Below are positions 3,807 to 55,244 of a DNA stretch of 64,000 bases, one piece after another. Under the pieces are notes generated by a model. The model searched no databases. It had not been told where the DNA came from and worked only from the letters and a program-made list of their open reading frames with translations. Both the position numbers and the translations under genes were made by a program. Source of the DNA: an uncultured virus (IMG/VR IMGVR_UViG_3300046008_001858) (taxonomy: Duplodnaviria; Heunggongvirae; Uroviricota; Caudoviricetes); IMG/VR virus record IMGVR_UViG_3300046008_001858. One strand, given 5' to 3'. The first letter of the stretch is position 1. Every line of letters begins with the position of its first letter.

Positions 3807-3989
3807 ATGAATAACATTGAAGCTTTAAAAGAAGCATTAAAAAATGTTGATTTGTATGACATTGAGGAAGCATTAAAAGAGCGACTTCAAGACGAATTTG
3901 AGAACGCTTACATGTGTTTTGACGGACTTACAAATCTAGATAGTAATCAGCAAAGAATTTTAAAATTCTATTTTGCTTTAAACAATTAA
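3807..3989 (+). CDS. Hypothetical protein
   Basis: 60-aa ORF, operonic, GAGGAG RBS. Confidence 0.6.
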   Translation: MNNIEALKEALKNVDLYDIEEALKERLQDEFENAYMCFDGLTNLDSNQQRILKFYFALNN

Positions 3990-3999
3990 AGGACTTATT

Positions 4000-4308
4000 A
4001 TGAATGCAAATTGTGTTTTATTCGGGGAAATTATTTGTGAAATACAACTAATTGTTGCTGAAAATGGAGCTATCTGTCGAACAGAACAAAGACGAATAAT
4101 TCTTGAAATGGCTGATAAAATGATTAAAGATGGATTAATTGATTCAGAATCAACTGATATCGATGAAATTATACTTAATAATATTGACAAGTATTTAGGA
4201 ACTTTGTTAAAATTAAAAAATGAATATTCATTTATAAGAACTATAAATGCAATAAAATCACATGCTTCTGAATGCAATAATTCATTATTTGGATTAAGCA
4301 ATACATAG
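4000..4308 (+). CDS. Hypothetical protein
   Basis: 102-aa ORF with AAGGA RBS. Confidence 0.6.
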   Translation: MNANCVLFGEIICEIQLIVAENGAICRTEQRRIILEMADKMIKDGLIDSESTDIDEIILNNIDKYLGTLLKLKNEYSFIRTINAIKSHASECNNSLFGLSNT

Positions 4309-4500: not shown

Positions 4501-5271
4501 TTATTTAAAAAATAAATTATTTACATTATTTTCAATTTTATTTTCTAATTCTTTAATATCCTTTTTTAAAATAAAAGCAATTTTATTTAATACATATCTT
4601 GTGTATGCTGGTTCATTACGTTCTCCTCTATGAGGAACTGGAGTTAAATAAGGCCCATCTGTTTCAAGAATAATTCTATTAATATCCATTGATTTTAAAG
4701 TATTTTCTAATAAACCAGTTTTATCATAAGTTAAAACACCACCTATTCCAAAATAAAAATTAAACTTTTCTAATTCTAATAATTTTTTACTACCTAAAAA
4801 ACAATGAACAACTCCACCAACTAAATCATGTCCAAATTTAGAAACAGATTCAACCATTTCTAAATCAGTATCTCTTGAATGCAATATAACTGGTTTACGC
4901 CATTTTGCTGCTAATTCAAGTTGTTGTTCAAATACTTTCTTTTGAGCAGCCTTAACATCGTTTATGTTACTTCCAGGTTGAATTCTGTACCAATCTAATC
5001 CACATTCACCAATAGCCACACATTTCTCATGAGAAAGATGTCGTTCAATTAATTGTAAATTAAAATGATTCATTCTATTTGGATGATTTCCAGTACTAAA
5101 AAAAATATCCTCATGTTTATTTACTAAGTGTAAAATACCAACCATATTATCTGATTCAATTGCTGGTATAATAAATCTTTTAACTCCAGCATCTCTCGCT
5201 GTTCCTAAAACTCTATCTATGTCATTATGATATTGTTTAACATCTAAATGAACATGTGTGTCTGTTATCAT
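4501..5271 (-). CDS. tatD: TatD family hydrolase
   Basis: DTHVH, GNHP, AIGECGLD, LHSR, VVHCF and LETDGPYL motifs. Confidence 0.95.
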   Translation of the reverse strand: MITDTHVHLDVKQYHNDIDRVLGTARDAGVKRFIIPAIESDNMVGILHLVNKHEDIFFSTGNHPNRMNHFNLQLIERHLSHEKCVAIGECGLDWYRIQPGSNINDVKAAQKKVFEQQLELAAKWRKPVILHSRDTDLEMVESVSKFGHDLVGGVVHCFLGSKKLLELEKFNFYFGIGGVLTYDKTGLLENTLKSMDINRIILETDGPYLTPVPHRGERNEPAYTRYVLNKIAFILKKDIKELENKIENNVNNLFFK

Positions 5272-5335: not shown

Positions 5336-5776
5336 CTATAGATATTCATAAATCTCAATTTCTAAATCAAGATCTTCTAAATATTTGATCATTAATGGTT
5401 TTACTTGAGATTCAAAATCAAGTCCACCATTTTGACATCCTAGATGAGGGAATGCTATAGAAGTAATTCCTTTTTCTTTATATGTGTTTACAAATTTTTT
5501 TAAACCTTCTTCAATATTTTTAATTTCAGAAGGGTTTCTCCAATCAGTTTTTGTTGGAAAATTTAAAATCCATTTTTCTTCAGATTTATATAAAAATAAC
5601 TTACCAATATCTAGTAATTTATTATCACAAATCTTTTTATAAATAGAAAACATTCTTGGATATCGTTTTTTATATTTTAAAGCAATTCCTTTTCCCATAA
5701 CTCCAACACAATTTACTGTGTTAACGATGGTTTGAACTTCTGAAGAAAAAAAATCGCCTTTTATGAATTTTATCAT
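5336..5776 (-). CDS. Macrodomain ADP-ribose hydrolase (DarG/Poa1-like)
   Basis: GDFF, IVNTVNCVGVMGKGIA, ILNFPTK and SIAFPHLGCQNGGL motifs. Confidence 0.9.
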   Translation of the reverse strand: MIKFIKGDFFSSEVQTIVNTVNCVGVMGKGIALKYKKRYPRMFSIYKKICDNKLLDIGKLFLYKSEEKWILNFPTKTDWRNPSEIKNIEEGLKKFVNTYKEKGITSIAFPHLGCQNGGLDFESQVKPLMIKYLEDLDLEIEIYEYL

Positions 5777-5815
5777 ACGTCATCCTTTATTAATTGATAT
5801 TATAAATTTTTTATA

Positions 5816-6055
5816 TTAATATTTTTTATCTTTTAATGCTAACCATATTTGTTTATCTAATCTATATTGAATTAATCCATTTATAAAAATATAAGATATT
5901 AATAGCAATATAAACAAATAAAATTTATCTGTAAACATATAAATTAAAATAAAAAATGGAATAAGTAAACTTAAGTTATCAATAAAACTAAATTTTAAAT
6001 ACTTTAAAAATGAAGGAAACTCTTGTAATTTAATAATTTCGTCAATATGAATCAT
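5816..6055 (-). CDS. Hypothetical membrane protein
   Basis: 79 aa with two hydrophobic segments, GGAG RBS. Confidence 0.55.
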   Translation of the reverse strand: MIHIDEIIKLQEFPSFLKYLKFSFIDNLSLLIPFFILIYMFTDKFYLFILLLISYIFINGLIQYRLDKQIWLALKDKKY

Positions 6056-6164
6056 TTTTTCTCCATCTTCGCTAACAACTTTAGTTGTTTAACAATTATA
6101 ATCTTTAATTAAGGTGTATTATATTATAATTTTCCTTAATATAATATCAAGAGGAATAAAGATT

Positions 6165-6914
6165 ATGATTAAAGGGTTTATTGGAGACTATATAGGATCA
6201 ATTCATGAGGGATATCAATGGACAAAAAAGGATCAAGATATTTTAAATTTAAATGCTGAAAGAATACCAGTCATTAAAGATGCTTTTAACAAGAGAATAG
6301 AACAATCAATTACAGATGATTCTATTTGTACATTAGGACTTTATAAAGCATACTCTGAAGGAGCTATTGGAGATGAATCAGCACAAATATTAGCAAATTT
6401 TTGTAAAGAACATAGGGATTGTGGATTTGGAAAACAATTTGAAAAGTGGATAGATAATCCAATCCCCTATAACTCTTTTGCAAATGGATGTTTAATGAGA
6501 TTAGGGTTTTTAGAATATGTTCCTGAAAATGAAAGATTGTATTTTGGTATTGATTATACTGTTATTTCTCATAATCATGACGATTCTGTAGATTCTGTAA
6601 AAGATTATATTGAAATATTAAATAATAAAGGAAATACTTTTGTATTAAATAATATTATAAAGAAAAGAGAAATTAAAAAAACAGTTGAAGATTATCATAA
6701 TGATAAAAAATTTGAAATATCTGCTAAAGGGACACTTGATCAAGCATTAATTGTTTTAAAAGAATCGAATTCTTTTATAGAAATTCTTCAAAATTGTATG
6801 TTTATTGGTGGAGATACAGATACTTTAGCTACTATTGCTTGTAATTTAAGTAAATTTGAAATACCTGAAGAGTTGTTATTTATTTTAAAAGAAAAAATGA
6901 AGAATTTGATTTAA
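6165..6914 (+). CDS. ADP-ribosylglycohydrolase family protein
   Basis: GDYIGS, TDDS, SFANGCLMR, SHNH and GGDTDT motifs. Confidence 0.9.
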   Translation: MIKGFIGDYIGSIHEGYQWTKKDQDILNLNAERIPVIKDAFNKRIEQSITDDSICTLGLYKAYSEGAIGDESAQILANFCKEHRDCGFGKQFEKWIDNPIPYNSFANGCLMRLGFLEYVPENERLYFGIDYTVISHNHDDSVDSVKDYIEILNNKGNTFVLNNIIKKREIKKTVEDYHNDKKFEISAKGTLDQALIVLKESNSFIEILQNCMFIGGDTDTLATIACNLSKFEIPEELLFILKEKMKNLI

Positions 6915-11531: not shown

Positions 11532-13868
11532 GTGCTAGCAAAAAGGAATGATATTTTGATTACAAATTTTCTTAAATCTACAAAACTTAAACCCTACAAA
11601 AAAATCGCTTCAAATTCTATATCTACTGATATAAGTCTTCTTTCTGATTCTGAATTAAATACATTTATTAATGACAATATTAGTAATAAAGAAATTGCTT
11701 TTTCAGTAATAAGAGAAGCTGCTAAAAGAACTTTAAATATTGAACCTTACGATGTTCAAATTATGGGTGCTTTAATCATTACAGATGGAAAAATAGCAGA
11801 AATGAAAACAGGTGAGGGTAAAACATTGACTGCAGGTATGACTGCAGTATATAATGCTCTCTTAGGTAGAAAAGTATATATAGTTACAGTTAATGATTAT
11901 CTAGTAGAAAGAGATTCTCATGAAAATAAGCCATTATTTGATTTCTTTGAATTAAGTGTGGGAACAATTGTTTCGACCAATAGAGATAATGAATATAAAA
12001 AAGAACAATACGATTGTAATATTGTTTATGGAACAAATTCAGAATTTTGTTTTGACTATTTAAAAGATAATATGGTTCATGATATTAATGATAAAGTTCA
12101 ACCTGTGCAGGATTTTGTTCTTATAGACGAAATTGATTCAATTCTTATTGACGAAGCAAGAACACCACTTATTATTTCTGGTCAAAATGATTATTCTTCT
12201 TATGATTTGTATATGATAGATATTTTTTCAAAATCATTAAAAGAAGGGAAAATGGTTGTTGAAGATTACACAAAAAAATATACAGATGATTTCTATATTG
12301 ATCGACAACAACATTTAGTAATTTTATCAGAAGAAGGGATTAATAAAATAGAAAGTTTTTTCAAAATAGAACATTTATATGAAAATCATGATACAAGTGG
12401 ATTAGCACATATTATTGAACAAGCATTAGTTGCAAATCATATTTATGAAAATGGATTACAATATATTATTAAAGATTCAAGAATTGTTCTTATTGACGAA
12501 AATACAGGAAGATTAACAGAAGGTCGTCAATTATCTCATGGCTTACACCAAGCAATAGAAGCAAAAGAAAATCTTATATTATCTCCAGCAACATCTGTTT
12601 TAGCTGAAATAACATATCAAAATTATTTTAAATTATTTGAAACAATCGGTGGTATGACAGGAACAATTGAAACTGAAGCAAAAGAGATGTATGAAGTTTA
12701 TAAGTTAGATATTATTGAAGTTCCTACAAATAAACCTGTTATTAGAAAAGATAAGAAGGATATTATCTTTACAACAAAAGAAAGAAAAATTAAATATCTC
12801 ATTAATTTAGTTAAAGAAATTAATTCAAAAGGACAACCAATTCTTATTGGAACAGCTTCAGTAACAGATAATGAAATATTAGAAGAAATTTTTGAAAAAG
12901 AAAATATAAAAGTTAATGTTTTAAATGCTAAAAATGCTGAAATAGAAGGTGAGATTATTGCTAAAGCAGGACAATTTGGATCAATTACTTTAACAACAAA
13001 TATGGCGGGACGTGGAGTTGATATAAAACTTGATCAACAATCAAAAGATGTTGGTGGATTATTTGTAATTGGATTTGAAAGATATGATAATCGTCGTATT
13101 GATAATCAATTACGTGGGAGAAGTGGCCGTCAGGGAGATCCAGGTGTAACACAATTTTTTGTTTCTTTAGAAGACAGAATGATAAAAGCATTCGCAGGAA
13201 GTAAATTGCTTAATATTGTATCTAATTTAGATATAGATGATTCTGAATTTCTAGAATCAAGAATGATTTCAAAAGGAATAGAAAAAGCTCAAATAAAAAT
13301 GGAAGAATCTAATTTTGAAAGTAGAAAAGAATTAGTTAAATATGATCAAATAATTTCGATTCAAAGAAATAAAATATTTGAATTAAGAGATTCAATTCTT
13401 TCTCCTGATTATGATTTTATTTCAAAAATAAATGAATTAATTGAACATTCTGTTGATCAAGTTTTTTCAAATGGAGAAGAAGACAAAGAAACAGCATATA
13501 ATAATTTATTGTCATTATTTAACATTATGGTTAATGATTATTTATATTTAAGAAAACAAGATTTAGTTCATATGTTTGAAAATAAAATAGCTTCAAAATT
13601 TGGAATAATGCCTCCAGAAGACATGTTTAGTTTTATGAGAAGTATTTATTTGGATGCTATTGATTCAAGTTGGATTGAAAATTTAACAAATCTTGAAGAG
13701 TTAAGAAAAGGTGTAGGTCTTAGACAAATAAACCAAAAAGATCCTTTAATTGAATTTAATAAGGAAGCTTATTCAATGTTTGCTACAATGTTAAATGTAA
13801 ATCAATTAAAAATCATGAAAACATTATTGCATGTTCAAATTGAAATAATAAAAGAAGAGACCAATTAG
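11532..13868 (+). CDS. secA: Preprotein translocase subunit SecA
   Basis: AEMKTGEGKT, VTVNDYL, DEIDSILIDEARTPLIISG, TNMAGRGVDI and RRIDNQLRGRSGRQGDPG motifs. Confidence 0.98.
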   Translation: MLAKRNDILITNFLKSTKLKPYKKIASNSISTDISLLSDSELNTFINDNISNKEIAFSVIREAAKRTLNIEPYDVQIMGALIITDGKIAEMKTGEGKTLTAGMTAVYNALLGRKVYIVTVNDYLVERDSHENKPLFDFFELSVGTIVSTNRDNEYKKEQYDCNIVYGTNSEFCFDYLKDNMVHDINDKVQPVQDFVLIDEIDSILIDEARTPLIISGQNDYSSYDLYMIDIFSKSLKEGKMVVEDYTKKYTDDFYIDRQQHLVILSEEGINKIESFFKIEHLYENHDTSGLAHIIEQALVANHIYENGLQYIIKDSRIVLIDENTGRLTEGRQLSHGLHQAIEAKENLILSPATSVLAEITYQNYFKLFETIGGMTGTIETEAKEMYEVYKLDIIEVPTNKPVIRKDKKDIIFTTKERKIKYLINLVKEINSKGQPILIGTASVTDNEILEEIFEKENIKVNVLNAKNAEIEGEIIAKAGQFGSITLTTNMAGRGVDIKLDQQSKDVGGLFVIGFERYDNRRIDNQLRGRSGRQGDPGVTQFFVSLEDRMIKAFAGSKLLNIVSNLDIDDSEFLESRMISKGIEKAQIKMEESNFESRKELVKYDQIISIQRNKIFELRDSILSPDYDFISKINELIEHSVDQVFSNGEEDKETAYNNLLSLFNIMVNDYLYLRKQDLVHMFENKIASKFGIMPPEDMFSFMRSIYLDAIDSSWIENLTNLEELRKGVGLRQINQKDPLIEFNKEAYSMFATMLNVNQLKIMKTLLHVQIEIIKEETN

Positions 13869-16921: not shown

Positions 16922-17428
16922 ATGGAAACAAAAATTGTAAATATGGATGAAAATTTAATGAATTGTAACGCTTTAAAAGGTGTTATTGAACAACGAACAA
17001 TGAATGCTGACGATTGGGTTGAAAAACATGGTAGCGGCACTCTTCGTAAAAATAAAAAACTTGGAATGACTTGGCGTGCACAATATCTTGAAGAACGAAC
17101 TGCTTATCAATTTGGATGGGAATTTCAAATTCAACCACGTAGTCGTATTATGTTTGGAGATGCTTTTACTGAAGGTGATTCACATTCAGTAACGGAAGCT
17201 GGATGGCATATTGAACGATATATGACATTGAAATTATTTCCTGAAGATCACTTTGAATGTAAATATATTAATGTAGAATACGGCCATGGTGAAAAAAAAG
17301 AAGGAATTGGAATTATTATTCGAGAAACAAGTGTCCAATGGATTCCTTCTGGACATATTGTTTTTGCTATTGTTGCAGAATTTGATTCTGTTGTTGGAGA
17401 ATGGAAAGATGCTACAAATCCATTTTAA
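16922..17428 (+). CDS. Hypothetical protein
   Basis: 168-aa ORF with strong RBS. Confidence 0.75.
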   Translation: METKIVNMDENLMNCNALKGVIEQRTMNADDWVEKHGSGTLRKNKKLGMTWRAQYLEERTAYQFGWEFQIQPRSRIMFGDAFTEGDSHSVTEAGWHIERYMTLKLFPEDHFECKYINVEYGHGEKKEGIGIIIRETSVQWIPSGHIVFAIVAEFDSVVGEWKDATNPF

Positions 17429-22032: not shown

Positions 22033-23049
22033 ATGAAACTCGTAAATGTTAATCAACTAAGAAACAAAAAAAATTTATTAGCTTTTTCTGGCGGAACAGA
22101 TTCAAGTGCACTGTTTAATGTTTTAATTTCAGAAAAAATTGAATTTGATATTATCATTGTAAATTACAATACTAGAGAAACATCTTTTGCTGAAACTATG
22201 TTTGCTCGTGATTTAGCAACAACTTATAATAAAATGTGTTTTACAAAAAGTGTTGTAATTGAAAATCATTCTAATTTTGAAAAAGTAGCAAGAGATGTTA
22301 GACATTCATTTTTCGAAGAAACAATTAAGGAATATAATTATGACAATTTAATTACAGGTCATAATCTTAATGATAAAATGGAATGGTTTCTTATGCAAAT
22401 GACAAGAGGCGCTGGAATTAGAGAATTATTTGGTATGGAACCAATTTCAGAAAAAGAAATTGATAATTCAGGTATTTTTTATAATATTGTTCGACCTTTG
22501 ATCTCTACTTCAAAAGAAGAAATTCTTGCTTATCTTGAAGATAATAAATTGAAACATTTTTTCGACGAATCTAATAATGATCAAAAATATACTCGTAATC
22601 AATTTAGAGCAAATTATGTATCAAAACTTGTTTCAGACTTTTCAACTGGTATTTCAAAAACATTTGATATTTTAGAAAAAGAAGTTGATTGTCTTGATAT
22701 TAAAGTTGAATATATTGAAAGATCCGATGATTATGCTATCGTAAAAGCTGCTGATTATAATTTTGTTTCTATTGCTAGTTTGTTATTAAAAAAATATGGA
22801 TATGTCATGAGCGGCCCTCAGCGTGATTCATTTCATACACTATGTGAATTAGTTGTTACCATTGGAACAATGCCTTATGTTATCTCTTATCATACAAATA
22901 CACTAACGTTTACACCTTATGTAATTGGAGTTGCAATGACAAATGAATTTAAGGAGAAAATGCGCAAATCTTTAGTTCATCCTAAGCATAGAGCTTATTT
23001 ATTTATGATTGAAAATAAAAATAATTTAAATTATACTTCTATTGTATAA
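22033..23049 (+). CDS. tilS: tRNA(Ile)-lysidine synthetase
   Basis: AFSGGTDS PP-loop, FEKVAR, TGHNLND..E, IVRPL and DESN..KYTRNQFR motifs. Confidence 0.95.
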   Translation: MKLVNVNQLRNKKNLLAFSGGTDSSALFNVLISEKIEFDIIIVNYNTRETSFAETMFARDLATTYNKMCFTKSVVIENHSNFEKVARDVRHSFFEETIKEYNYDNLITGHNLNDKMEWFLMQMTRGAGIRELFGMEPISEKEIDNSGIFYNIVRPLISTSKEEILAYLEDNKLKHFFDESNNDQKYTRNQFRANYVSKLVSDFSTGISKTFDILEKEVDCLDIKVEYIERSDDYAIVKAADYNFVSIASLLLKKYGYVMSGPQRDSFHTLCELVVTIGTMPYVISYHTNTLTFTPYVIGVAMTNEFKEKMRKSLVHPKHRAYLFMIENKNNLNYTSIV

Positions 23050-33941: not shown

Positions 33942-34028
33942 ATGAAAACTGTTCAATCATATCAACCGTATCAGTATCAGCCGCAACATAGTGGCCATGG
34001 CCGTTCTCCTATGGAGAGAGATAGTTAA
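33942..34028 (+). CDS. Leader peptide 1, MKTVQSYQPYQYQPQHSGHGRSPMERDS
   Basis: AAGGAG RBS; Tyr/Gln/Pro/His-rich; followed by hairpins and a terminator. Confidence 0.75.
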   Translation: MKTVQSYQPYQYQPQHSGHGRSPMERDS

Positions 34029-34056
34029 TTCTATCTTTTTTCATAACAAATCTCTT

Positions 34057-34110
34057 AAGGGGGGATTTGGAGAAGGTCTTAGGATCTAATCCAAGTCTCC
34101 CCTTTTTTTT
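34057..34110 (+). terminator. Intrinsic terminator (attenuator 1)
   Basis: AAGGGGGGATTTGGA/TCCAAGTCTCCCCTT stem followed by a T-run. Confidence 0.85.
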
Positions 34111-34267
34111 GGTCTATAAAATAGGGTTTTTGAATATTTAAATGTTCAATTTAGATTTTTGAATATAAATATATTCAATTTAATATAAAAATAAATAACA
34201 ACAAACACGCAGTGTGTGCATTCGTAAGAATACGAAGTAGGCATTAGCGAAACAGGAGAAAATTGAA

Positions 34268-34342
34268 ATGCAAACTTTAACTTATCAATATCAGCATAGC
34301 TATCAACCCCAACATCCTAGTTGTAGGAGAACTCTCATGTGA
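34268..34342 (+). CDS. Leader peptide 2, MQTLTYQYQHSYQPQHPSCRRTLM
   Basis: AGGAG RBS; shares YQPQH with leader 1. Confidence 0.75.
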   Translation: MQTLTYQYQHSYQPQHPSCRRTLM

Positions 34343-34384
34343 CTTTTTTTAAGGTCATAACCCAGAAAAACTGAAAAAGTTTTT

Positions 34385-34436
34385 AAGGGGAAGGAAAGAG
34401 AGATCTTCGTAGATTTTTCTTCCTTCCCCTTTTTTT
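34385..34436 (+). terminator. Intrinsic terminator (attenuator 2)
   Basis: AAGGGGAAGGAA..TTCCTTCCCCTT long stem followed by a T-run. Confidence 0.85.
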
Positions 34437-34640
34437 ATGCTTTAAATAGTACAAAAAAGGTATTTTTGTCGAAAGATGAGAAGTATTTACTGAGTAATTA
34501 TTTATTAGGTGATAACACCGACAGCTGGTGGTTATTGATAATAAATAATAAAAAGATGAATAAAGAAAATTATTTAGTAGAACAAGTGAATTACGTAATA
34601 AACTTGAAATACCTGTTTTGTGCTATTTATAGCAATATAT

Positions 34641-34732
34641 GCTGAATTTCCCTCTCGACTGAATACGTAAATCGGTTGACTTTAAACAGAGAGGTGGTTA
34701 GTCGAAAGGTTAAATTCCTTAAGGAGGCACCA
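34641..34732 (+). ncRNA. Pseudoknotted tRNA-like RNA, divergent copy
   Basis: CCTCTC/GAGAGG, ACTGA/TCGGT, GACT/AGTC, 4-bp T stem, ACCA end. Confidence 0.6.
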
Positions 34733-34738
34733 AATTAT

Positions 34739-34832
34739 GTATTTCTTTCCTTCTACTCGGCTGTAACCCGAGCGTCTAAAAAACGGAGGGGTAGTATTAA
34801 GACAGGAGGTGCAAGTCCTCGGAAATACACCA
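34739..34832 (+). ncRNA. Pseudoknotted 8/4 tRNA-Tyr(GTA)-like RNA
   Basis: 8-bp acceptor, CTCGG-CT-GTA-AC-CCGAG, 4-bp T stem, ACCA; no conventional D arm. Confidence 0.7.
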
Positions 34833-34843
34833 AAGATTATTAT

Positions 34844-34937
34844 GGGTCTCTTTCCTTCCACTCGGCTGTAACCCGAGCGTCTCAAATACGGAGGGGTAGT
34901 ATTAAGACAGGCTGTGCAAGTCAGCGGGGGCCCACCA
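34844..34937 (+). ncRNA. Pseudoknotted 8/4 tRNA-Tyr(GTA)-like RNA
   Basis: Same core as the 34739 copy with covarying acceptor and T stems. Confidence 0.7.
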
Positions 34938-34940
34938 AAT

Positions 34941-35025
34941 GGAGATGTCGTATAGAGACCGATTACAGCAGCCTGTAAAGCTGCCGCCTACAGCCGCCTT
35001 GGTTTGAATCCAAGCGTCTCCACCA
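34941..35025 (+). tRNA. tRNA-Tyr(GTA)
   Basis: GCAGC-CT-GTA-AA-GCTGC, long variable region, ACCA. Confidence 0.85.
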
Positions 35026-35034
35026 TTATTATAT

Positions 35035-35112
35035 CTGGGTGTAACGTGAATGGTTATAACGTGCTCCTTTGGAAGGAGGGACATGTGGGTTCGAGTCCCA
35101 CCGCTCAGACCA
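35035..35112 (+). tRNA. tRNA-Pro(TGG)
   Basis: C1-G72, A73, CTCC-TT-TGG-AA-GGAG, CCA. Confidence 0.8.
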
Positions 35113-35122
35113 AAATTATAAA

Positions 35123-35197
35123 TGATAATATAGCTCAAAGAATAGAGTACCATGAACGGTCGTGGAGATTTTGGTGTAATTCCAGATATTGTCAACA
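35123..35197 (+). pseudogene. tRNA-like gene without a canonical anticodon loop
   Basis: Acceptor, D and T-like stems present; anticodon arm CCATGA-ACGG-TCGTGG. Confidence 0.5.
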
Positions 35198-35256
35198 AAA
35201 AAAAGCTTTTCTAAAGAAATAAGTTAGCGCTGATTTAAATTTCTTTAGTTATTTAT

Positions 35257-35331
35257 CTAGCTGTTGGAAAGTGGTAATCCGCTTGATTTGGGATCAAGAG
35301 ACCGTGAGTTCGAATCTCACCAGTTAGACCA
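35257..35331 (+). tRNA. tRNA-Pro(TGG)
   Basis: CTTGA-TT-TGG-GA-TCAAG, C1-G72, ACCA. Confidence 0.9.
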
Positions 35332-35342
35332 AAATTATATTT

Positions 35343-35429
35343 GTATCGGTAGAACGTAAGTGGAAGCGTGCAGGTCTGTAAAACCTGAGTCTATTGGCCT
35401 TGAAAGTTCGATCCTTTCCCGATGCACCA
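35343..35429 (+). tRNA. tRNA-Tyr(GTA)
   Basis: CAGGT-CT-GTA-AA-ACCTG, variable arm, ACCA. Confidence 0.88.
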
Positions 35430-35439
35430 GAATAAATAT

Positions 35440-35516
35440 TGCGAAGTGGAGAAATTGGTGTCTCAACGTCCTTTGAAGTCGTAAACATGCAGGTTCGAAT
35501 CCTGCCTTCGCAGCCA
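35440..35516 (+). tRNA. tRNA-Gln(TTG)
   Basis: U1-A72, G73, CT-TTG-AA loop, CCA. Confidence 0.85.
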
Positions 35517-35525
35517 AACCAAATA

Positions 35526-35598
35526 TGCTCTTATCATCTAACGGTAGGATTTCGGCCATTTGTGCCGACCATGTCAGTTCAAGTCTGACTAAGAGCAA
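35526..35598 (+). tRNA. Atypical tRNA-like gene (loop CATTTGT), copy 2
   Basis: Near-identical to 957-1029; TCGGC/GCCGA stem. Confidence 0.6.
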
Positions 35599-35606
35599 CT
35601 AAAAAT

Positions 35607-35681
35607 GTGGCTTGTAGCTTAATGGATTAAAGCATCTCTTTGTGGCAGAGAATACTGGGTTCGATTCCCACGGTCACCCCA
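35607..35681 (+). tRNA. tRNA-His(GTG)
   Basis: TCTCT-TT-GTG-GC-AGAGA, C73, CCA. Confidence 0.78.
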
Positions 35682-35687
35682 TAATAT

Positions 35688-35773
35688 TGCGAAGTAAACG
35701 AATTGGTAGAGTTACGGGTCTTTGAAACCCGAGTCTTAGGACAGTGTAGGTTCGAAGCCTACCTTCGCAGCCA
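35688..35773 (+). tRNA. tRNA-Gln(TTG) with long variable arm
   Basis: CGGGT-CT-TTG-AA-ACCCG, GTC-TTAG-GAC variable hairpin, GCCA. Confidence 0.82.
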
Positions 35774-35821
35774 AAAGATAATAAAGAAGAGATTTCTTTA
35801 CAGAAAAGTTAAAGTATGAAT

Positions 35822-35890
35822 ATCTATTTAGTTTAATGGTAAAACAAGCTCAGAAGAGCTAGATGTTGGTTCGAGTCCAACAATAGGAAC
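35822..35890 (+). pseudogene. tRNA-like gene with 4-nt anticodon loop
   Basis: D arm GTTTAATGGTAAAAC, AGCTC-AGAA-GAGCT, T arm GTTGG-TTCGAGT-CCAAC. Confidence 0.55.
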
Positions 35891-35989
35891 TCCTTATTCA
35901 GAAAAACTTAGTAAGTCTAGAAAGAATGTGGGAGCATTCAAAAAACTAGAGAAATCTGCTCTTTGTTATCTTAAAATAACAAAAATTAT

Positions 35990-36063
35990 AACTCTTTCGT
36001 CTAGCGGTAGGACATTTGGTTTTGGACCAAAGAACTCAGGTTCGAATCCTGATAGAGTTTCCA
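35990..36063 (+). tRNA. tRNA-Gln(TTG)
   Basis: TTTGG-TT-TTG-GA-CCAAA, canonical T arm, CCA. Confidence 0.8.
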
Positions 36064-36198
36064 AAATATACAATAGTATGTATAAAGTCATATATTTTCT
36101 ATTAAGGCTTACATTAGTAAGTTTTAAGTGTGAATATATCTAATTAGATATTTTACATGTTATATATACCGATAAGAGATCTAAAAAGATATTTTATC

Positions 36199-36275
36199 GG
36201 TGTCTATAATCTAATGGCTAAGAGACTTGACTATGAATCAAGGACATCTCGGTTCGAATCCGAGTGGGCACACCA
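36199..36275 (+). tRNA. tRNA with ATG anticodon (His CAU decoder)
   Basis: CTTGA-CT-ATG-AA-TCAAG, full cloverleaf, ACCA. Confidence 0.8.
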
Positions 36276-36287
36276 AATTTCTAAAAT

Positions 36288-36363
36288 ATGTACAGAATAA
36301 ATAAACCTCCTCGTGGTTGTACATGGATACTTATATATTAATATATAAGGCTAATATGTTTAT
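36288..36363 (+). ncRNA. HDV-like self-cleaving ribozyme
   Basis: P1 ATGTACA/TGTACAT, P3 ACC-TCCTCGT-GGT, P1.1 GG, P4 hairpin, J4/2 GCTAA, P2 ATAAATA/TGTTTAT. Confidence 0.75.
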
Positions 36364-36371
36364 ATAAATAT

Positions 36372-36443
36372 GTGGTTCGTAGCATAAAGGTAATGCGCTA
36401 GATTGTGGCTCTAGATAAGAGGGATCAATACCCTTCGTTCCAA
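36372..36443 (+). tRNA. tRNA-His(GTG), degenerate
   Basis: CTAGA-TT-GTG-GC-TCTAG; imperfect acceptor and T loop; no CCA. Confidence 0.6.
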
Positions 36444-36444
36444 C

Positions 36445-36518
36445 GGGAATAAAGCTCTTTGGAGAGCGCTAGGAAGAGGTTCTTAGAGGATTTGGTTCGA
36501 TTCCAAATATTCTCAACC
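36445..36518 (+). pseudogene. tRNA-like gene without a canonical anticodon loop
   Basis: GGGAATA/TATTCTC acceptor, T arm TTTGG-TTCGATT-CCAAA, CTAGGAA-GAGG-TTCTTAG arm. Confidence 0.5.
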
Positions 36519-36759: not shown

Positions 36760-37128
36760 TTAAAGTTCCAAAATAAATTCCATAGCTTTAAACACCGCTT
36801 CTGGTTCTGTATCAGCATAAAAATGTGTCTTAATAAAAGATCCATGAGTCCAGCAATGCCATTCTCCAGATTCATCTTTATTACTTGCTAACCAAAAATA
36901 TGTTTTTGCACCAACTTTTACGTCAATACCATTAAAAGCAAATTCTTTACAAAGACTTGCTAACTCATGAAGATTTAATCCCTTTGGATATTGTTTTGCA
37001 TTTTCATAAGCAGGCTCACCTTTATCCCAACCATATTGAGTAAGAACCCAAAAACTGTTATCACTCGGATCAATATATGGAATACATTCGAACCCAAGAA
37101 CTGCACTTAATACTTTAGCGGTAATCAT
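36760..37128 (-). CDS. Hypothetical protein, tandem paralog family
   Basis: LHELA..CKE.A..EAVFKAMEFI motif shared by 5 adjacent ORFs. Confidence 0.8.
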   Translation of the reverse strand: MITAKVLSAVLGFECIPYIDPSDNSFWVLTQYGWDKGEPAYENAKQYPKGLNLHELASLCKEFAFNGIDVKVGAKTYFWLASNKDESGEWHCWTHGSFIKTHFYADTEPEAVFKAMEFILEL

Positions 37129-37502
37129 TTTTGATCCTTTAAACTTTTTAAAACAAATTCACAAGCCATAAAAATAGCTTCTGGTATTGTGTCATTAATG
37201 AATTTTTCACTAATATCATAACTTTTTAATAAATCTGCTCTCGCTTTTTTATTGTAAAAATAACCTTGAACAATATATCCATAAGAATAAGCCCACTCTT
37301 GACACTTATGAGCTAACTCATAAATATTAATCTCTCCATCGTACATAATCGATGTATGATTAATACAACCATCTGAAAAGTTATATTTAATTGAGTTATC
37401 CTCAACTTTAATTCTTACAATTCGAGAAATATATGATTCCCCATCGTAAGACGAAATAGTTTCTTTTCCTATTACCACTGTAATTAGATCTAAACTAATC
37501 AT
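37125..37502 (-). CDS. Hypothetical protein, tandem paralog family
   Basis: IYELAHKCQEWA..EAIFMACEFV. Confidence 0.8.
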   Translation of the reverse strand: MISLDLITVVIGKETISSYDGESYISRIVRIKVEDNSIKYNFSDGCINHTSIMYDGEINIYELAHKCQEWAYSYGYIVQGYFYNKKARADLLKSYDISEKFINDTIPEAIFMACEFVLKSLKDQK

Positions 37503-37840
37503 GACTCATCCTTTATAAGATTTAAAATAAATTCACCAGATTTAAAAATTGCTTCATATTCATACTTATCTGAATCTAAACTGACAATAGATCTATGAAG
37601 CGATTTAGCTGTTGAATTAAACTTATCTTTACATGCAATTTCAGTGGAAATAATATATCCATTTTCATAAGCCCAAATTTTACATTTGTTTGCCAATTCA
37701 TGAAGATTGAGACCTTCAGGATATTTCTTGCCATTAAATTTTTGCCAACCAAATTCAGTACAAACAAGTAAAGAATTATCTTCTTTAATTTCTGTATATT
37801 TTGGACCGAGTATAGCAATTAATAATTTACTTGTAATCAT
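37499..37840 (-). CDS. Hypothetical protein, tandem paralog family
   Basis: LHELANKCKIWA..EAIFKSGEFI. Confidence 0.8.
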   Translation of the reverse strand: MITSKLLIAILGPKYTEIKEDNSLLVCTEFGWQKFNGKKYPEGLNLHELANKCKIWAYENGYIISTEIACKDKFNSTAKSLHRSIVSLDSDKYEYEAIFKSGEFILNLIKDES

Positions 37841-38277
37841 TTCTGATCCTTTTCTATTTGATCAAAAATCCATTCACAAGCTTTAAAGATTGCATCTATA
37901 TAAGTTTTCTCTCTTATTAGATACTCTTGTGACACATGCCATTCTTCTTTACCGCCTTGTATCACTTCATTAATATTTAGCAAATTCATTTTTAAATTAA
38001 CGTAACATGTAACAAGATCTTTGTTAACACTTATTGTTAAATTTTTATGATATTCTTTAGCCCACTCTTGACATTTATGAGCTAATTCATGAATATTAAT
38101 ACCATTTGGATATTCTTCTGAATTTTTATAAGCAGGATCGCCTTTTTTAAAACCAAATTCATCTCTATTAAAAAAGAAATTTTTATTTGGTACAAGAATC
38201 CAAAAACTACCGTCATCTTCAATGTACGGTATACATTCAAACCCAAGCACTGCGCTTAGTACATTATTATTAATCAT
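37837..38277 (-). CDS. Hypothetical protein, tandem paralog family
   Basis: IHELAHKCQEWA..DAIFKACEWI. Confidence 0.8.
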   Translation of the reverse strand: MINNNVLSAVLGFECIPYIEDDGSFWILVPNKNFFFNRDEFGFKKGDPAYKNSEEYPNGINIHELAHKCQEWAKEYHKNLTISVNKDLVTCYVNLKMNLLNINEVIQGGKEEWHVSQEYLIREKTYIDAIFKACEWIFDQIEKDQK

Positions 38278-38627
38278 TTCTGATCCTTTTCCATATTAGC
38301 TGAAATAAACTCTACAGCTTTAATAACAGCATCTTGTTCGTCATCTTCATCTGTTGAAAAACATTTCTGACCACTATCAATTTTAACACGTACATATGTT
38401 CGATTATCATCGTCAATATAACACAAATGAATATCAATAGTGAAACCATTTTTACGAATCCAATCTTTACATTTTTCTAATAAAAAATGTATTTCATATT
38501 CGATGCTTTCGTTAATTGTACGAACCATTAAATATGAACCTTTTCTTGTCACAAGAATAGATTCATCGACATATTCAACTTGAACCCCAAGCACTTTTGA
38601 CAATGCTAAACAACTAATAACTTCCAT
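38274..38627 (-). CDS. Hypothetical protein, tandem paralog family
   Basis: IHFLLEKCKDWI..DAVIKAVEFI. Confidence 0.8.
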   Translation of the reverse strand: MEVISCLALSKVLGVQVEYVDESILVTRKGSYLMVRTINESIEYEIHFLLEKCKDWIRKNGFTIDIHLCYIDDDNRTYVRVKIDSGQKCFSTDEDDEQDAVIKAVEFISANMEKDQK

Positions 38628-43645: not shown

Positions 43646-43981
43646 ATGACAGAAGAATACTTTGGATTATCATCTTTAGATGAAGCTAAAATTTTAGCAA
43701 AATGTAGCGCAAGAATTACAAGAGAATCTTGGGATAAAGAAGATGAAAATAAAGCAATTGTTTTAGGCGATGAATTATCGAGAAGCTATGGGTTGTATTC
43801 AGATCATCCTTATGATTTTCATAAAATATATAAAGGTGAATTAACAAATTATGTTAAAGAATTTAAAGAAAAATTTCCTGCTGAATGGTATTTAGTTCGA
43901 GTAGGAGATGAAAATTTTAAACCAGTTCCTTATATTTTTTCTGAAGATGATCTCAAAGCTACAGATTGGAGAGGTTGGTAG
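43646..43981 (+). CDS. Hypothetical protein (possible DUF2829-like)
   Basis: ARITRESW N-terminal and S.DDLKATDW C-terminal motifs. Confidence 0.6.
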   Translation: MTEEYFGLSSLDEAKILAKCSARITRESWDKEDENKAIVLGDELSRSYGLYSDHPYDFHKIYKGELTNYVKEFKEKFPAEWYLVRVGDENFKPVPYIFSEDDLKATDWRGW

Positions 43982-46292: not shown

Positions 46293-47273
46293 TTAGTTAA
46301 AATTAATAACAACTTTATAATAATTATCTGGAGTTAATCTGAAATTATCGTTTTTCACACATCGTTCTGTGTTCGCTAATAAATGTCCTGTTTGTAACCA
46401 ATCTCTTCCAGAAGTATATATTTCTTCTTTAAAATTAAATTCAGAATCATAAACAAATGTATGCGAAAATTGTCTTGAATATTCTCGATCATTTTTAAAA
46501 TTATCAGTAATAAAAATATTATTTGACATAAAATATCCAGATCTTAATTTATGAAAACAATCAAACGAAAATACTGTTGTCTTAGTTATATCTAAAATTT
46601 CTTCAATAGTCATTTCTTGAAAACTTAATGAATAATTTTCAGAAATAGGTTTGATATCTTCATAATAAAGAATATTCTTTTTAATTATAAATACACTATT
46701 AATAGTATCAACAATATCTTTTTTTGTAATTTTCAAGTCTTTAATGACTTTTACCTTATTATTTAAATAAAATACGTTGTTTTCATATATTGAATCAACT
46801 TTATAATCATTATGTTTATAAACTTCAAATGCAACATGCTTTTTTTGAACTTTAGATACTATAATTTCTCCAGCTTTACTTCTTCGATAAGAAATGATAT
46901 ATTTTAAACCAAGATAAATAAAATAACTTTTTTTATCATCTAACATATATACATTTCCAATAACTAAATCATTAAAGTCAATAGATATACTTGTATTATT
47001 ATATGTTTCTGTCAACCAAGAATCATAAACATGTTTTGGTTTAGGATTACCATATGAATCAAGAATAAAAGGAAAAACAAAGGAATTATTTATAATAGAA
47101 ACTTTATTTTTAATTATTAATTTCATAATAGAAGAAAGAGACATTGAGTAGGTTTGTTCATTATCAAAAATTAATGATACTGAATCATCGTCTATACTTT
47201 TAATATATGCCTCATTTGTGACATAAGGTTCGTAATGTTTTGTTTTTTGAAATAATTTTGGATCAAAAGCCAT
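46293..47273 (-). CDS. Hypothetical protein
   Basis: 326-aa ORF with RBS. Confidence 0.7.
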   Translation of the reverse strand: MAFDPKLFQKTKHYEPYVTNEAYIKSIDDDSVSLIFDNEQTYSMSLSSIMKLIIKNKVSIINNSFVFPFILDSYGNPKPKHVYDSWLTETYNNTSISIDFNDLVIGNVYMLDDKKSYFIYLGLKYIISYRRSKAGEIIVSKVQKKHVAFEVYKHNDYKVDSIYENNVFYLNNKVKVIKDLKITKKDIVDTINSVFIIKKNILYYEDIKPISENYSLSFQEMTIEEILDITKTTVFSFDCFHKLRSGYFMSNNIFITDNFKNDREYSRQFSHTFVYDSEFNFKEEIYTSGRDWLQTGHLLANTERCVKNDNFRLTPDNYYKVVINFN

Positions 47274-52904: not shown

Positions 52905-53218
52905 TGGATATGGAGTTAATCATTTTATGATAATCATTTACAAAAAATAATTCATTTTTATTAAGTATTTTTTAAGTTATAGTTGTATATACTTTTGCCA
53001 TAAGAACGGTAAGGACCACTTACTTAAAAAGTCTCTTTAACTGACGAGCGGTATCCATAGGAACAGAAAGCATTTATGCGTAAATTCCAAGTATTCCTCA
53101 GCTCAATGTGCGTATTATTAGATCTACTATGGAGCGATCTTATAATAATACGGATAACAGCATGGCGTGTTGGCAGATCGTTATCCAACAGTGTGTACGA
53201 AAACACACAATTTTATAT

Positions 53219-53298
53219 GAAGATTGTAGCTCCAACTGGTTAGAGCACTGGGTGTTAACTCAGACAGGTTGTAGGTTCGAATCCTATCAATCTTCGCC
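53219..53298 (+). tRNA. Degenerate tRNA-Asn(GTT)-like gene
   Basis: CTGGG-TGTTAA-CTCAG 6-nt loop; good D and T arms. Confidence 0.55.
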
Positions 53299-53642
53299 TT
53301 TTCACTTATTCATAATAGTACTGAGGCGATTCATTTCAATCAGTAGGTTAATGTCAGATGGAGTTGAAGAACTTCTATTGCAGAAGCTGTTATTGCTAGG
53401 TAACAGTAAATACTAATCCTAGAATAGATGCATCTATTTTAGGTAATAAATTATTAAAAAACAACTTTACGATCTAAGTATTTTATAAAAATATTTATAC
53501 CGTCGAGCTTGAAAGAGGTAAAACTTGTAAAGACTCTCATTCTTTATAGGTTAAGAAGAGTTTAATAATACCTTAAATTGGGAAATGAGATTTCTGGTTT
53601 TTTGGTTTATATTGAACATGTTGCGGCGGACAAATTATATAT

Positions 53643-53709
53643 GGTAAAATCGTCTAACTGGTTAGGACAGCGAATCGCACAATATTGGTTCAAATCCAAT
53701 TTTTACCCA
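53643..53709 (+). pseudogene. tRNA-like gene with truncated anticodon arm
   Basis: GGTAAAA/TTTTACC acceptor, D arm, GCG-AAT-CGC stub, T arm, CCA. Confidence 0.6.
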
Positions 53710-53806
53710 AAAAACTTTGCAAGAGATAAAACTTCAGGTGTACGGCCAATCAGAGCACCAAAGACGAAGCGGTAAAAGTCCGAATCGATTTAGGCACGTT
53801 TTATAT

Positions 53807-53882
53807 GAAGATTGTAGCTGAATTGGTGAGAGCGTCCTCCGTAAAACGAGGGAGATGTAGGTTCGACTCCTATTGATCTTCA
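53807..53882 (+). pseudogene. tRNA-like gene with non-canonical anticodon arm
   Basis: GAAGATTG acceptor as at 53219, T arm GTAGG-TTCGACT-CCTAT. Confidence 0.55.
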
Positions 53883-53890
53883 TAAAGCAT

Positions 53891-53965
53891 CTCGTAGTAG
53901 TATAACGGATATTACAAGGCACTCCTAAGGCTTTAATAGAAGTTCGATTCTTCTCTGTGAGACCA
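53891..53965 (+). tRNA. tRNA-Arg(CCT)
   Basis: CT-CCT-AA loop, weak anticodon stem, T arm, ACCA. Confidence 0.7.
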
Positions 53966-54201
53966 TTAAATTTAATATTGAATTAAGTTTTTTATTAAAA
54001 TTTAATTCAGTGTTAGCAAACTGAGGAATTTTCTAGTTAACCTAAAGAACTATACGTATTTGAGTTTGTACGTAACCGACTCTCGATTTGGAACTACTGC
54101 AGATAAGCGAGCAGCCAACGTAGCTTAGACTTTACAGATGGTAGCCTGGCAGTTTAGAGTAAACTGTGTTACAAGTGTTTCAGCTAAGAAATGCGAAAAA
54201 T

Positions 54202-54405
54202 ACATAGTGGCGGAATAACTTTTAAGACTGATATGAAAAGTTCTTAAGTAGAAAGACGCAAGCGGTTAGTAGACGTACACCTATACATTTTCAAATAGGT
54301 AGATCTCGTGTGCAAAGTTAGGCTGGAAACCGAGTTAATGCTAGTCAGGAAAATGTAGCATGAATCTAAGCACACAATCCAATGGTGTAAGTCCATTGGC
54401 TATGT
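54202..54405 (+). ncRNA. Expanded tRNA-like RNA
   Basis: ACATAGTGGCGGAAT..AGACGC..CAATGG-TGTAAGT-CCATTG-GCTATGT. Confidence 0.65.
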
Positions 54406-54434
54406 TATAGCAGCGATTAAATTCGCATTCAAAT

Positions 54435-54656
54435 AATAGTGGTGGAATAAATATTGTTGTAGGTATGGGTGTAGCTCAGGTATATTAGAGCGCTACTGTA
54501 AAAGGTAGAGGTCGCAGTGAAAATCTGCCACGAATTGAACCGTAAGACCACGATGATAAAGACACGATTAACCAGATGTAATAATTTCGGCACTTGATAT
54601 GTCGCAAGGAGCATGTGGAGAATATCAAATCCAAGAGTGAGAGTCTCTTGGCTATT
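54435..54656 (+). ncRNA. Expanded tRNA-like RNA
   Basis: AATAGTGGTGGAAT..AGACAC..CAAGAG-TGAGAGT-CTCTTG-GCTATT. Confidence 0.65.
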
Positions 54657-54664
54657 TAATATTA

Positions 54665-54738
54665 TGAATATAGTAACTCAATTGGTTAGAGTGTCCTTCT
54701 ATGGTCAGGTTATAGGTTCGAATCCTATCTATATTCAC
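54665..54738 (+). pseudogene. tRNA-like gene with collapsed anticodon arm
   Basis: Acceptor GAATATAG/CTATATTC, canonical D and T arms. Confidence 0.6.
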
Positions 54739-55024
54739 TTAAAAATTATTAACTGCTTGATTGAATTGAACACTAGTAGATCAAGAGTCGTTTCCAAGGT
54801 TCTTTGGCTGGACGACCGTAGAGATGGAAATTCTCTCAGATACAATACGAAATTATAAGTTGTATCACATATTGTAGGTTGCAGTCAACAGGCTGTAATT
54901 AAATAGGATGATTTGAATTTATTCAAAAAGATAGAGACTTACCTACAATATTAGGATTGCTAAATTTCAGTTGAGCTTATCTTCTTTTCCAGAGTGGTGG
55001 AATTAAGAGATTTAGTCCTAAAAA

Positions 55025-55145
55025 AAATATTTAATGAAGACTATAAATGGAAAGAGGTTCGATTCCTCGGGAGGCGGAGATAACTTCAATGTCGCCTAGG
55101 TGAGCGCTGCGGCAAAATAGCTCAATTAGTTTTCACAAAATATTT
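55025..55145 (+). ncRNA. Circularly permuted tRNA mimic (YrlA-like topology), copy 1
   Basis: Long closing stem enclosing T arm, then a capped stem, then a D-like hairpin. Confidence 0.6.
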
Positions 55146-55244
55146 AAGACCGCTAGTAACGGACTAAAAGAAATACACCAGGAACTCCCGTAGAAATACG
55201 TCGTTTTTTCGAAACATAATGGGTGTACGAATCTTATTAATTAA

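Follow-up and report, generated by a model that had tools for sequence, protein, structure and literature searches.

A family of pseudoknotted tRNA-Tyr genes without a D hairpin: candidates for a tRNA with re-threaded strands

Three tandem units of 92, 94, and 94 nt stand immediately upstream of a tRNA array in the 64,000-nt stretch of DNA analyzed here, referred to as the window. Each unit ends in ACCA and resembles a tRNA-Tyr gene, and none of them contains a D hairpin. An earlier note on this DNA had read them as tRNAs with a rewired architecture, that is, an 8/4 division of acceptor and T stem combined with a long-range pseudoknot in place of the D arm, which could act either as functional, nuclease-evading tRNA-Tyr or as decoys. 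The question raised by this locus is which kind of RNA such genes encode. Neither ARAGORN (21 genes in the window) nor Rfam (22 matches in the window) covered the three units, and a permissive Rfam scan of the units returned three short chance matches only. The positions of the units and of neighboring features are collected in Table 1.

The 5' half of a unit consists of an 8-nt acceptor strand, 2 nt, a 6-nt pyrimidine tract, 1 nt, and a hairpin with the anticodon GTA. The 3' half is composed of 1 nt, a 3-bp variable stem around 20–24 nt, 2 nt, a 4-bp T stem (AAGG/CCTT, GAGG/CCTC, and GCTG/CAGC in copies 1, 2, and 3) with a 7-nt loop, the 3' acceptor strand, A, and CCA. The pyrimidine tract forms a long-range helix of 6 bp, termed P1, with purines inside the variable loop (CCTCTC/GAGAGG in copy 1, CCTTCT/GGAGGG in copy 2, and CCTTCC/GGAGGG in copy 3); copies 1 and 3 differ by two compensatory pairs. 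Copies 2 and 3 possess an 8-bp acceptor and a CT-GTA-AC loop. In copy 1, three of the eight acceptor pairs are broken, the anticodon loop has 9 nt, and the T loop lacks C56; despite the damaged acceptor, its pseudoknot is whole, with Watson-Crick pairs at 6/6 positions. Unit lengths, 3' ends, T stems, the two clean copies, and the degenerate first copy had all been described correctly before. Two further details stood in part: the tract does pair with purines inside the variable loop, but a seventh pair proposed earlier is not conserved, and the variable-arm closure given as 4 bp (GTCT/AGAC or GACT/AGTC) is a real stem, extended in some members, of which 3 bp are conserved. Absent from the earlier note were the displacement of the D loop behind the pseudoknot strand, the wide occurrence of the family in phages, and the status of copy 1 as a degenerate member.

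Single-strand folding of the three units was unremarkable (z-scores of −0.88, −0.32, and +0.84). As these folds are no better than those of shuffled sequences, the case rests on the comparison of family members. A DNA run of another study yielded an identical contig over 34638–34811, covering copy 1 and most of copy 2, so the junction between these copies is not peculiar to one assembly. A 232-nt contig (34742–34973) from one of three RNA libraries is compatible with transcription of the units; it is possibly derived from DNA, and no RNA ends are visible in it. Copy 1 was not covered by any of the three RNA libraries; these are contig-level data and uninformative on expression.

Table 1. Positions of the pseudoknotted units and of neighboring features in the window
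Feature	Position	Strand	Remarks
Copy 1, degenerate pseudoknotted tRNA-Tyr-like gene	34641–34732	+	P1: 34651–34656 with 34689–34694
Copy 2, intact pseudoknotted tRNA-Tyr(GTA)	34739–34832	+	89.5 bits, in training set
Copy 2, acceptor	34739–34746/34821–34828	+	
Copy 2, pseudoknot helix P1	34749–34790	+	34749–34754 with 34785–34790; family covariation
Copy 2, anticodon	34763–34765	+	
Copy 2, variable stem	34774–34776/34801–34803	+	
Copy 2, putative displaced D-loop segment	34791–34800	+	AG at 34793–34794, predicted to dock on G55/C56 of the T loop
Copy 2, T arm	34806–34820	+	
Copy 2, A73	34829	+	followed by CCA
Copy 3, intact pseudoknotted tRNA-Tyr(GTA)	34844–34937	+	85.7 bits, in training set; P1: 34854–34859 with 34890–34895; anticodon 34868–34870
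Downstream tRNA array	34941–36515	+	13 ARAGORN calls, several degenerate: Tyr x2, Pro x2, Gln x3, His x3, one called Lys, two unassigned
Leader peptide 1, terminator hairpin, and competing antiterminator	33942–34112 (ORF 33942–34028)	+	13/28 codons Tyr/Gln/Pro/His
Leader peptide 2, terminator hairpin, and competing antiterminator	34268–34442 (ORF 34268–34342)	+	12/24 codons Tyr/Gln/Pro/His

Relatives were sought with sequence and structure patterns. A blastn search of the three units against phages and plasmids gave chance matches only. Among the narrow patterns, the narrowest found no locus and another found four loci, all of them other tRNAs; further ones (19, 14, 15, and 24 loci) each contained one true relative, the same phage fragment every time (G001). 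A pattern that ignored the tract and the loop added at least two relatives among the 124 loci listed, a metagenome scan at least one among the 116 loci listed, and a scan of genome contigs gave two loci, both due to chance. In the final pattern TTCC, G-C, and RGG were fixed, while the anticodon, tract positions 3–6, and most of the loop were left free. It matched 46 loci in phage contigs, 32 with full stems and 14 without. The 32 true loci represent 23 distinct sequences, and GTA was found in 32/32 although the anticodon had been left free. As the pattern was derived from tRNA-Tyr, the statement that the anticodon is always GTA applies to the sampled family and does not extend to the architecture. 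A structure descriptor that left the anticodon open, run over 1.88 Mb of loci, gave 33 distinct matches (some genes in two registers), of which 32 had GTA; no other anticodon was recovered, the 33rd match being a misread canonical tRNA-Tyr.

A covariance model was built from the 23 distinct sequences together with copies 2 and 3. Copy 1, which was outside the training set, scored 46.8 bits (E = 6e-11), whereas canonical tRNAs reached at most 36.4 bits. In control arrays the model recognized one diverged member (L262, 47.7 bits), and unannotated members were detected in the cultured Pseudomonas phages Rembedalsseter (86.3 bits), SCYZ1 (82.1 bits), and Lyrsu02 (70.9 bits); Lyrsu01 and Lyrsu03 were matched by blastn alone. 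Members measure 88–100 nt and are carried by a phage or a bacterial element. A sample of 401 genomes from the phylum to which G014 belongs yielded no member of the family, and the covariance model gave none in G014 and G015. Lactobacillus phages LP65 and Satyr, Bacillus phage P59, and phage f2b1 were matched by blastn and rejected as members, since their tRNA-Tyr genes have a D arm. Those of LP65 (L373, about 4974–5059) and Satyr (L374, about 3973–4057) are unannotated, have an extended D stem, and were missed by ARAGORN. SCYZ1 (L372) carries two 12/12 sigma-70 promoters with an extended −10 element (283–311 and 534–562), upstream of the knotted tRNA-Tyr gene and a tRNA-Pro gene and just before the terminase gene; in the phage record MH518298.3 the knotted gene occupies 46806–46894 on the minus strand. 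Furthermore, tRNAs with stop anticodons (CTA or TTA) occur in several member phages (L333, L343, L347, L350, and L381), which suggests recoding or suppression.

Conservation was assessed on 29 aligned genes with a mean identity of 61%. G1-C72 and A73 are present in 29/29 and an encoded CCA in 25/29. All 29 genes carry GTA, and 28 of them have a 7-nt YUGUAAM anticodon loop; U33, A37, and the 5-bp anticodon stem are likewise kept in 28/29. Every member has a 9-nt connector without a hairpin where the D arm would be expected. The variable loop is enlarged to 18–30 nt and includes a linker of 6–14 nt that is 60% A. RNAalifold, applied to 25 sequences, recovered the 8-bp acceptor, the anticodon stem, the 3-bp variable stem, and the 4-bp T stem, with double changes in 16/20 pairs. 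When the pseudoknot was included for 29 sequences, 92.8% of cells were paired and 21/26 pairs showed double changes, a result that beat all 500 shuffles and all slid controls; for the anticodon arm, 97.2% of cells were paired. The 8/4 division is supported by position 8, which pairs with 65 in 29/29 genes using five pair types, whereas 49 and 65 are pairable in 9/29 only.

On the automatic alignment, P1 was paired in 75.9% of cells, many rows being one column off in the 3' strand. Because of this misplacement P1 was tested free of the alignment: each tract was compared with the best 6-mer that its own variable loop, or the loops of other members, could offer. All six positions pair in 28/29 genes, 16 of which have Watson-Crick pairs only. 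The score of a tract with its own loop was 5.71, compared to 4.75 ± 0.11 for swapped tracts, and was reached in 0/100,000 permutations; in an earlier set of 25 sequences, 24 were fully paired (0/20,000 permutations). Pairs 1 and 2 are invariant by ascertainment in 23/29 genes, as they were fixed by the search pattern, and pairs 4 and 5, which the pattern left unconstrained, occur as five and four pair types. Compensatory change was seen in all five helices. The earlier note had claimed covarying stems on the basis of three copies and had named covariation among homologues as the test of the rewired architecture; both the 8/4 division and the pseudoknot without a D hairpin are borne out by it. 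That a real, covarying, and uncatalogued family of pseudoknotted tRNA-Tyr genes exists is, in our judgment, nearly certain.

Rather than being lost, the D loop seems to have shifted to a place behind the pseudoknot strand. One or two bases past the 3' strand of P1, the 29 genes carry an RG motif, which is GG in 16 and AG in 10; the remaining three read G-Y-G. This motif varies together with T-loop position 55: AG is accompanied by G55 in 10/10 genes, one of which (L262) has a degenerate T loop, and U55 by GG in 16/19, every GG being found with U55. The combination of AG and G55 occurs in at least three sequence subgroups, as judged by inspection of the alignment and not from a tree. Ordinary tRNAs from the same loci (1108 distinct genes, 999 with readable T loops) show G55 with AG in 26 and with GG in 4 cases, and U55 with GG in 945 and with AG in 12. 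By covariation, a contact of the G18/G19 type with T-loop positions 55/56 appears to be retained, made here from the displaced loop.

From these pairings a knotted L shape can be proposed. P1 would stack on the anticodon stem and replace the D stem together with the 8-14 and 15-48 layers. The tract would descend from the acceptor into the anticodon stem, the course normally taken by the 3' D strand, and the A-rich linker would lead from the variable stem to the partner strand. The latter would run up like a 5' D strand, present G18/G19 or A18/G19 to the T loop, and return to close the variable stem. In canonical tRNA, four D-stem pairs and two tertiary layers above them make six layers, matching the six pairs of P1. 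A common origin of the tract and the 5' D strand was also considered: E. coli tRNA-Tyr has UUCCC at positions 8–12, as read from a probe (PMC11555353; sources cited by PMC number were accessible in part). This sequence is present at these positions in 0/24 canonical phage tRNA-Tyr genes of the loci, and the homology remains a suggestion.

If such a gene serves translation, it may take the place of the canonical one. In arrays covering at least 12 other amino acids, a canonical tRNA-Tyr was found in 1/11 member arrays compared to 13/15 control arrays (Fisher p = 1.7e-4); the counts were 1/14 and 15/24 for at least nine amino acids, and 1/17 and 19/37 for at least six. Loci with fewer tRNA types were omitted and one locus per 90% cluster was counted, which removes kinship only roughly; as related phages share labels, the p values overstate independence. 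The controls were shorter (about 8 kb compared to 12 kb) and had been chosen by another pattern. The array of G001 contains 24 tRNAs for 19 amino acids, tyrosine alone being absent; it is headed by a short leader ORF with codons for all 20 amino acids (by eye), followed by a terminator (L055, about 17100–17210, minus strand). Additionally, no canonical tRNA-Tyr was found in seven CheckV-complete member genomes (G002, G004–G007, G009, and G012, with G002 and G004 being close relatives) and two GenBank-complete ones, using a whole-genome pattern that recovers 21/25 known canonical genes. Sixteen matches of this pattern were fetched and none was a tRNA; the eight matches in G003 were judged by eye only. 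Replacement is not strict, as the window has two canonical tRNA-Tyr genes beside the units and the locus L346/L365 has one. Nevertheless, the replacement of canonical tRNA-Tyr argues for a working tRNA.

The identity elements point in the same direction. A73, U35, and G1-C72 specify tyrosine in bacteria (PMC9976931), and the family presents GTA, A73, and G1-C72. The RNA would be cut from the array transcript, charged by the host TyrRS, and used to read UAC and UAU. We therefore favor, as an interpretation of sequence comparisons, a functional, nuclease-evading tRNA-Tyr over a decoy, since canonical tRNA-Tyr is replaced in complete sets and both the Tyr identity elements and the elbow contact are kept. 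That the genes encode a working, translating tRNA-Tyr with a re-threaded core seems likely. As a whole, a tyrosine tRNA with re-threaded strands that keeps the functional surfaces of the L shape is the best explanation, to which we assign a probability of roughly 65%.

The strongest competitor is a non-translating decoy, a tRNA-Tyr-shaped RNA that titrates or inhibits a nuclease, toxin, or synthetase specific for tRNA-Tyr. It would suit the arrangement in the window, where three tandem copies lie beside two canonical tRNA-Tyr genes and one of them combines a broken acceptor and a 9-nt loop with a perfect P1, a combination that fits a decoy as well as decay. Small Pseudomonas phages carry the knotted gene with at most one other tRNA gene nearby, and irregular tRNAs that are charged but do not translate are known (PMC5389517). 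Bacterial TyrRS contacts the variable arm (PMC1934993), which is altered here, so charging could be impaired, and this keeps the decoy alive. From a decoy one would, however, expect neither the displacement of canonical tRNA-Tyr from tRNA sets that are otherwise full nor the retention of the 12-bp branch, U33, A37, and the 5-bp anticodon stem in 28/29 genes. We consider it unlikely, yet worth carrying along.

A two-state RNA, functioning as a switch between the pseudoknot and a long variable hairpin, would account for copy 3, for which the minimum-energy fold contains an inner variable helix and the centroid, at similar energy, contains P1. As this inner helix is confined to one subgroup and the A-rich linker of the family has no consistent partner, such a switch is very improbable. 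Similarly, a D-loop-like motif 3' of the anticodon arm looks as if parts had been reordered, which might indicate an interrupted or permuted precursor that is cut and rejoined to an ordinary cloverleaf. There is no second D-stem strand from which to rebuild a D hairpin, the acceptor ends and CCA are already in mature order, and no joint was seen inside the units in four runs (contigs only, a weak argument), leaving little room for this proposal. Decayed tRNA-Tyr pseudogenes with chance complementarity of purines and pyrimidines would agree with the null folding scores, the damaged copy 1, and other degenerate tRNA genes in the array, but are contradicted for the family by the compensatory changes across 29 genes and the P1 permutation test and hardly credible, although decay could hold for copy 1 alone.

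The re-threaded tRNA-Tyr is most like canonical class II tRNA-Tyr (RF00005, including the nuclease-resistant tRNAs of SP15 and T5; PMC11555353, PMC12673091), yet it misses two defining features of it, the D arm and the 7/5 branch. Common to both are the GTA anticodon arm, G1-C72, A73, CCA, a 12-bp branch, the T loop, the elbow motif, and the place in tRNA arrays. The variable stem is also of the same type, and 13/24 canonical phage genes in the loci start it with N-G-C/T-C. In contrast to the D stem-loop and 7/5 branch of the canonical tRNA, members have an 8/4 branch, a variable loop knotted to the 5' tract, and the D-loop motif 3' of the anticodon arm. The variable loop of SP15 tRNA-Tyr is just 5 nt longer than that of E. 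coli (PMC12673091).

An 8/4 branch, a long variable region, and occurrence in phage tRNA clusters are shared with the 8/4 allo-tRNAs and phage 8/4 tRNA-Ser/His (Mukai et al., 2017; PMC5389517), and 8/4 tRNAs work in E. coli translation (PMC5389517). Allo-tRNAs have a long, tRNA-Sec-like D stem with a tetraloop, mostly G73 or U73, Ser or Ala identity, and 35 anticodons (PMC5389517), whereas the present family has no D hairpin, A73 throughout, and GTA in all 32 loci; the main part of that text describes no pseudoknot. The D-armless tRNAs described in a review are mitochondrial (PMC7609411). Mitochondrial tRNA-Ser likewise lacks the D hairpin and translates, but is an organellar gene product with a short, flexible, unpaired connector (PMC7609411); in the present family the connector contributes to a 6-bp helix that covaries, the elbow motif has been re-created, and the total length exceeds that of a normal tRNA. 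The tRNA-like structure of bromoviruses (TLS-Tyr) is also a non-cloverleaf RNA showing Tyr identity elements, but lies at the 3' end of a plant-virus RNA genome, has C1-G72, and is non-translating (PMC9976931). Members of the family are free-standing DNA genes with G1-C72 and a plain 8-bp acceptor helix. The pseudoknot of TLS-Tyr lies in the acceptor arm, and YrlA Y RNA, tmRNA, and the stable RNAs of phages T4 and T5 are tRNA mimics without a conserved anticodon arm. The family is set apart from the latter group, by their descriptions, through its conserved anticodon arm and the lack of an Rfam match. A literature search, largely at the level of titles and abstracts and mostly outside subscription papers, retrieved no description of a pseudoknotted D-armless tRNA.

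The remodeled region is one attacked by defense nucleases. The variable loop is where E. coli tRNA-Tyr is cut by PtuAB of retron-Eco7, which spares SP15 tRNA-Tyr owing to its longer loop (PMC12673091); in vitro, tRNA-Tyr is degraded directly by PtuAB (PMC13376987). This region is likewise the target of Septu, which T6 escapes via tandem amplification of its own tRNA-Tyr gene (PMC13096335). Rescue by SP15 tRNA-Tyr needs a strong promoter and an intact anticodon (PMC11555353). By analogy, the knot would bury or remove the variable loop cut by Septu and retron-Eco7 PtuAB, and tyrosine decoding would continue under attack. The remodeled target region, the 12/12 sigma-70 consensus in front of the knotted gene of SCYZ1, and the triplication in the window may be taken as a fit to evasion, not as a test of it. 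Whether the architecture was selected for escape from nucleases that cut tRNA-Tyr at its variable loop, such as Septu and retron-Eco7, is in our view an even bet.

Regulation of the array in the window may be linked to the same amino acids. Both leader ORFs upstream of the units have ribosome-binding sites and are followed by a terminator hairpin of about −30 kcal/mol, the 5' arm of which is able to pair with the leader instead. Their content of Tyr, Gln, Pro, and His codons (Table 1) exceeds the 10.8% measured across 12 long window ORFs (binomial p of about 2e-6 for each leader). Judged from these features, the leaders are probable attenuators, and as their codons specify the amino acids of the array tRNAs, the array looks inducible by a shortage of those tRNAs; the two leaders would switch it on when Tyr, Gln, Pro, and His tRNAs fail. 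Several other tRNA genes of the window are unusual. Near-identical odd tRNAs, called Lys(TTT), occur in two arrays (35526–35599 and 957–1030); they have A at position 33, and their D arm resembles the one in the Gln gene of the array. Further degenerate tRNA genes are located at 35822–35890 and 36445–36515. A 101-nt tRNA-like gene at 1361–1461, whose anticodon loop has TTT and whose variable region is greatly enlarged, was matched by Rfam (38.2 bits) and missed by ARAGORN. The region 53000–55200, about 2 kb almost without ORFs, contains at least five tRNA genes that are weak or degenerate, together with long unexplained stretches that may be more structured RNAs.

The window encodes SecA, a PP-loop protein, GGDEF/EAL proteins, a type I restriction subunit, an IS605-type transposase, and many unknown ORFs. 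Only 3 of the 30 proteins scanned match PHROG families, none of them structural. A neighboring gene falls into clusters commonest in Campylobacterota, and the sequencing runs best matching the window are lake and freshwater metagenomes. In our reading, the window belongs to a freshwater bacterium resembling Campylobacterota and represents a large mobile element or an accessory region; a plasmid, a huge phage, and an island fit alike. Other observations concern a macro domain beside an ADP-ribosylglycohydrolase (5336–6914), SecA (11532–13868), the PP-loop protein (22033–23049), which we take to be TilS-like, and a weak Tad2-like match under the Pfam cut-off (43646–43981). Five short tandem ORFs at 36760–38627 look paralogous, and the first has only four homologues in a protein search.

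Outside mitochondria, a cloverleaf with a D arm is regarded as universal. If the present reading is true, RNase P, TyrRS, EF-Tu, and the ribosome accept another chain topology. A fully translating pseudoknot tRNA would then be a second topological route to the L shape, spread in unrelated phages as a structural escape from nucleases and possibly a general chassis overlooked by annotation tools; we hold this broader proposal to be about as likely to stand as to fall. The family accounts for tRNA-Tyr genes "missing" from phage annotations, and engineered tRNAs could be built on it as a new scaffold. As the remodeled part is the part cut by Septu and retron-Eco7, it permits a direct test of how phage tRNAs evade tRNA-cutting defenses, and the cultured carriers, the Pseudomonas phages SCYZ1, Rembedalsseter, and Lyrsu02, make the family accessible to such testing.
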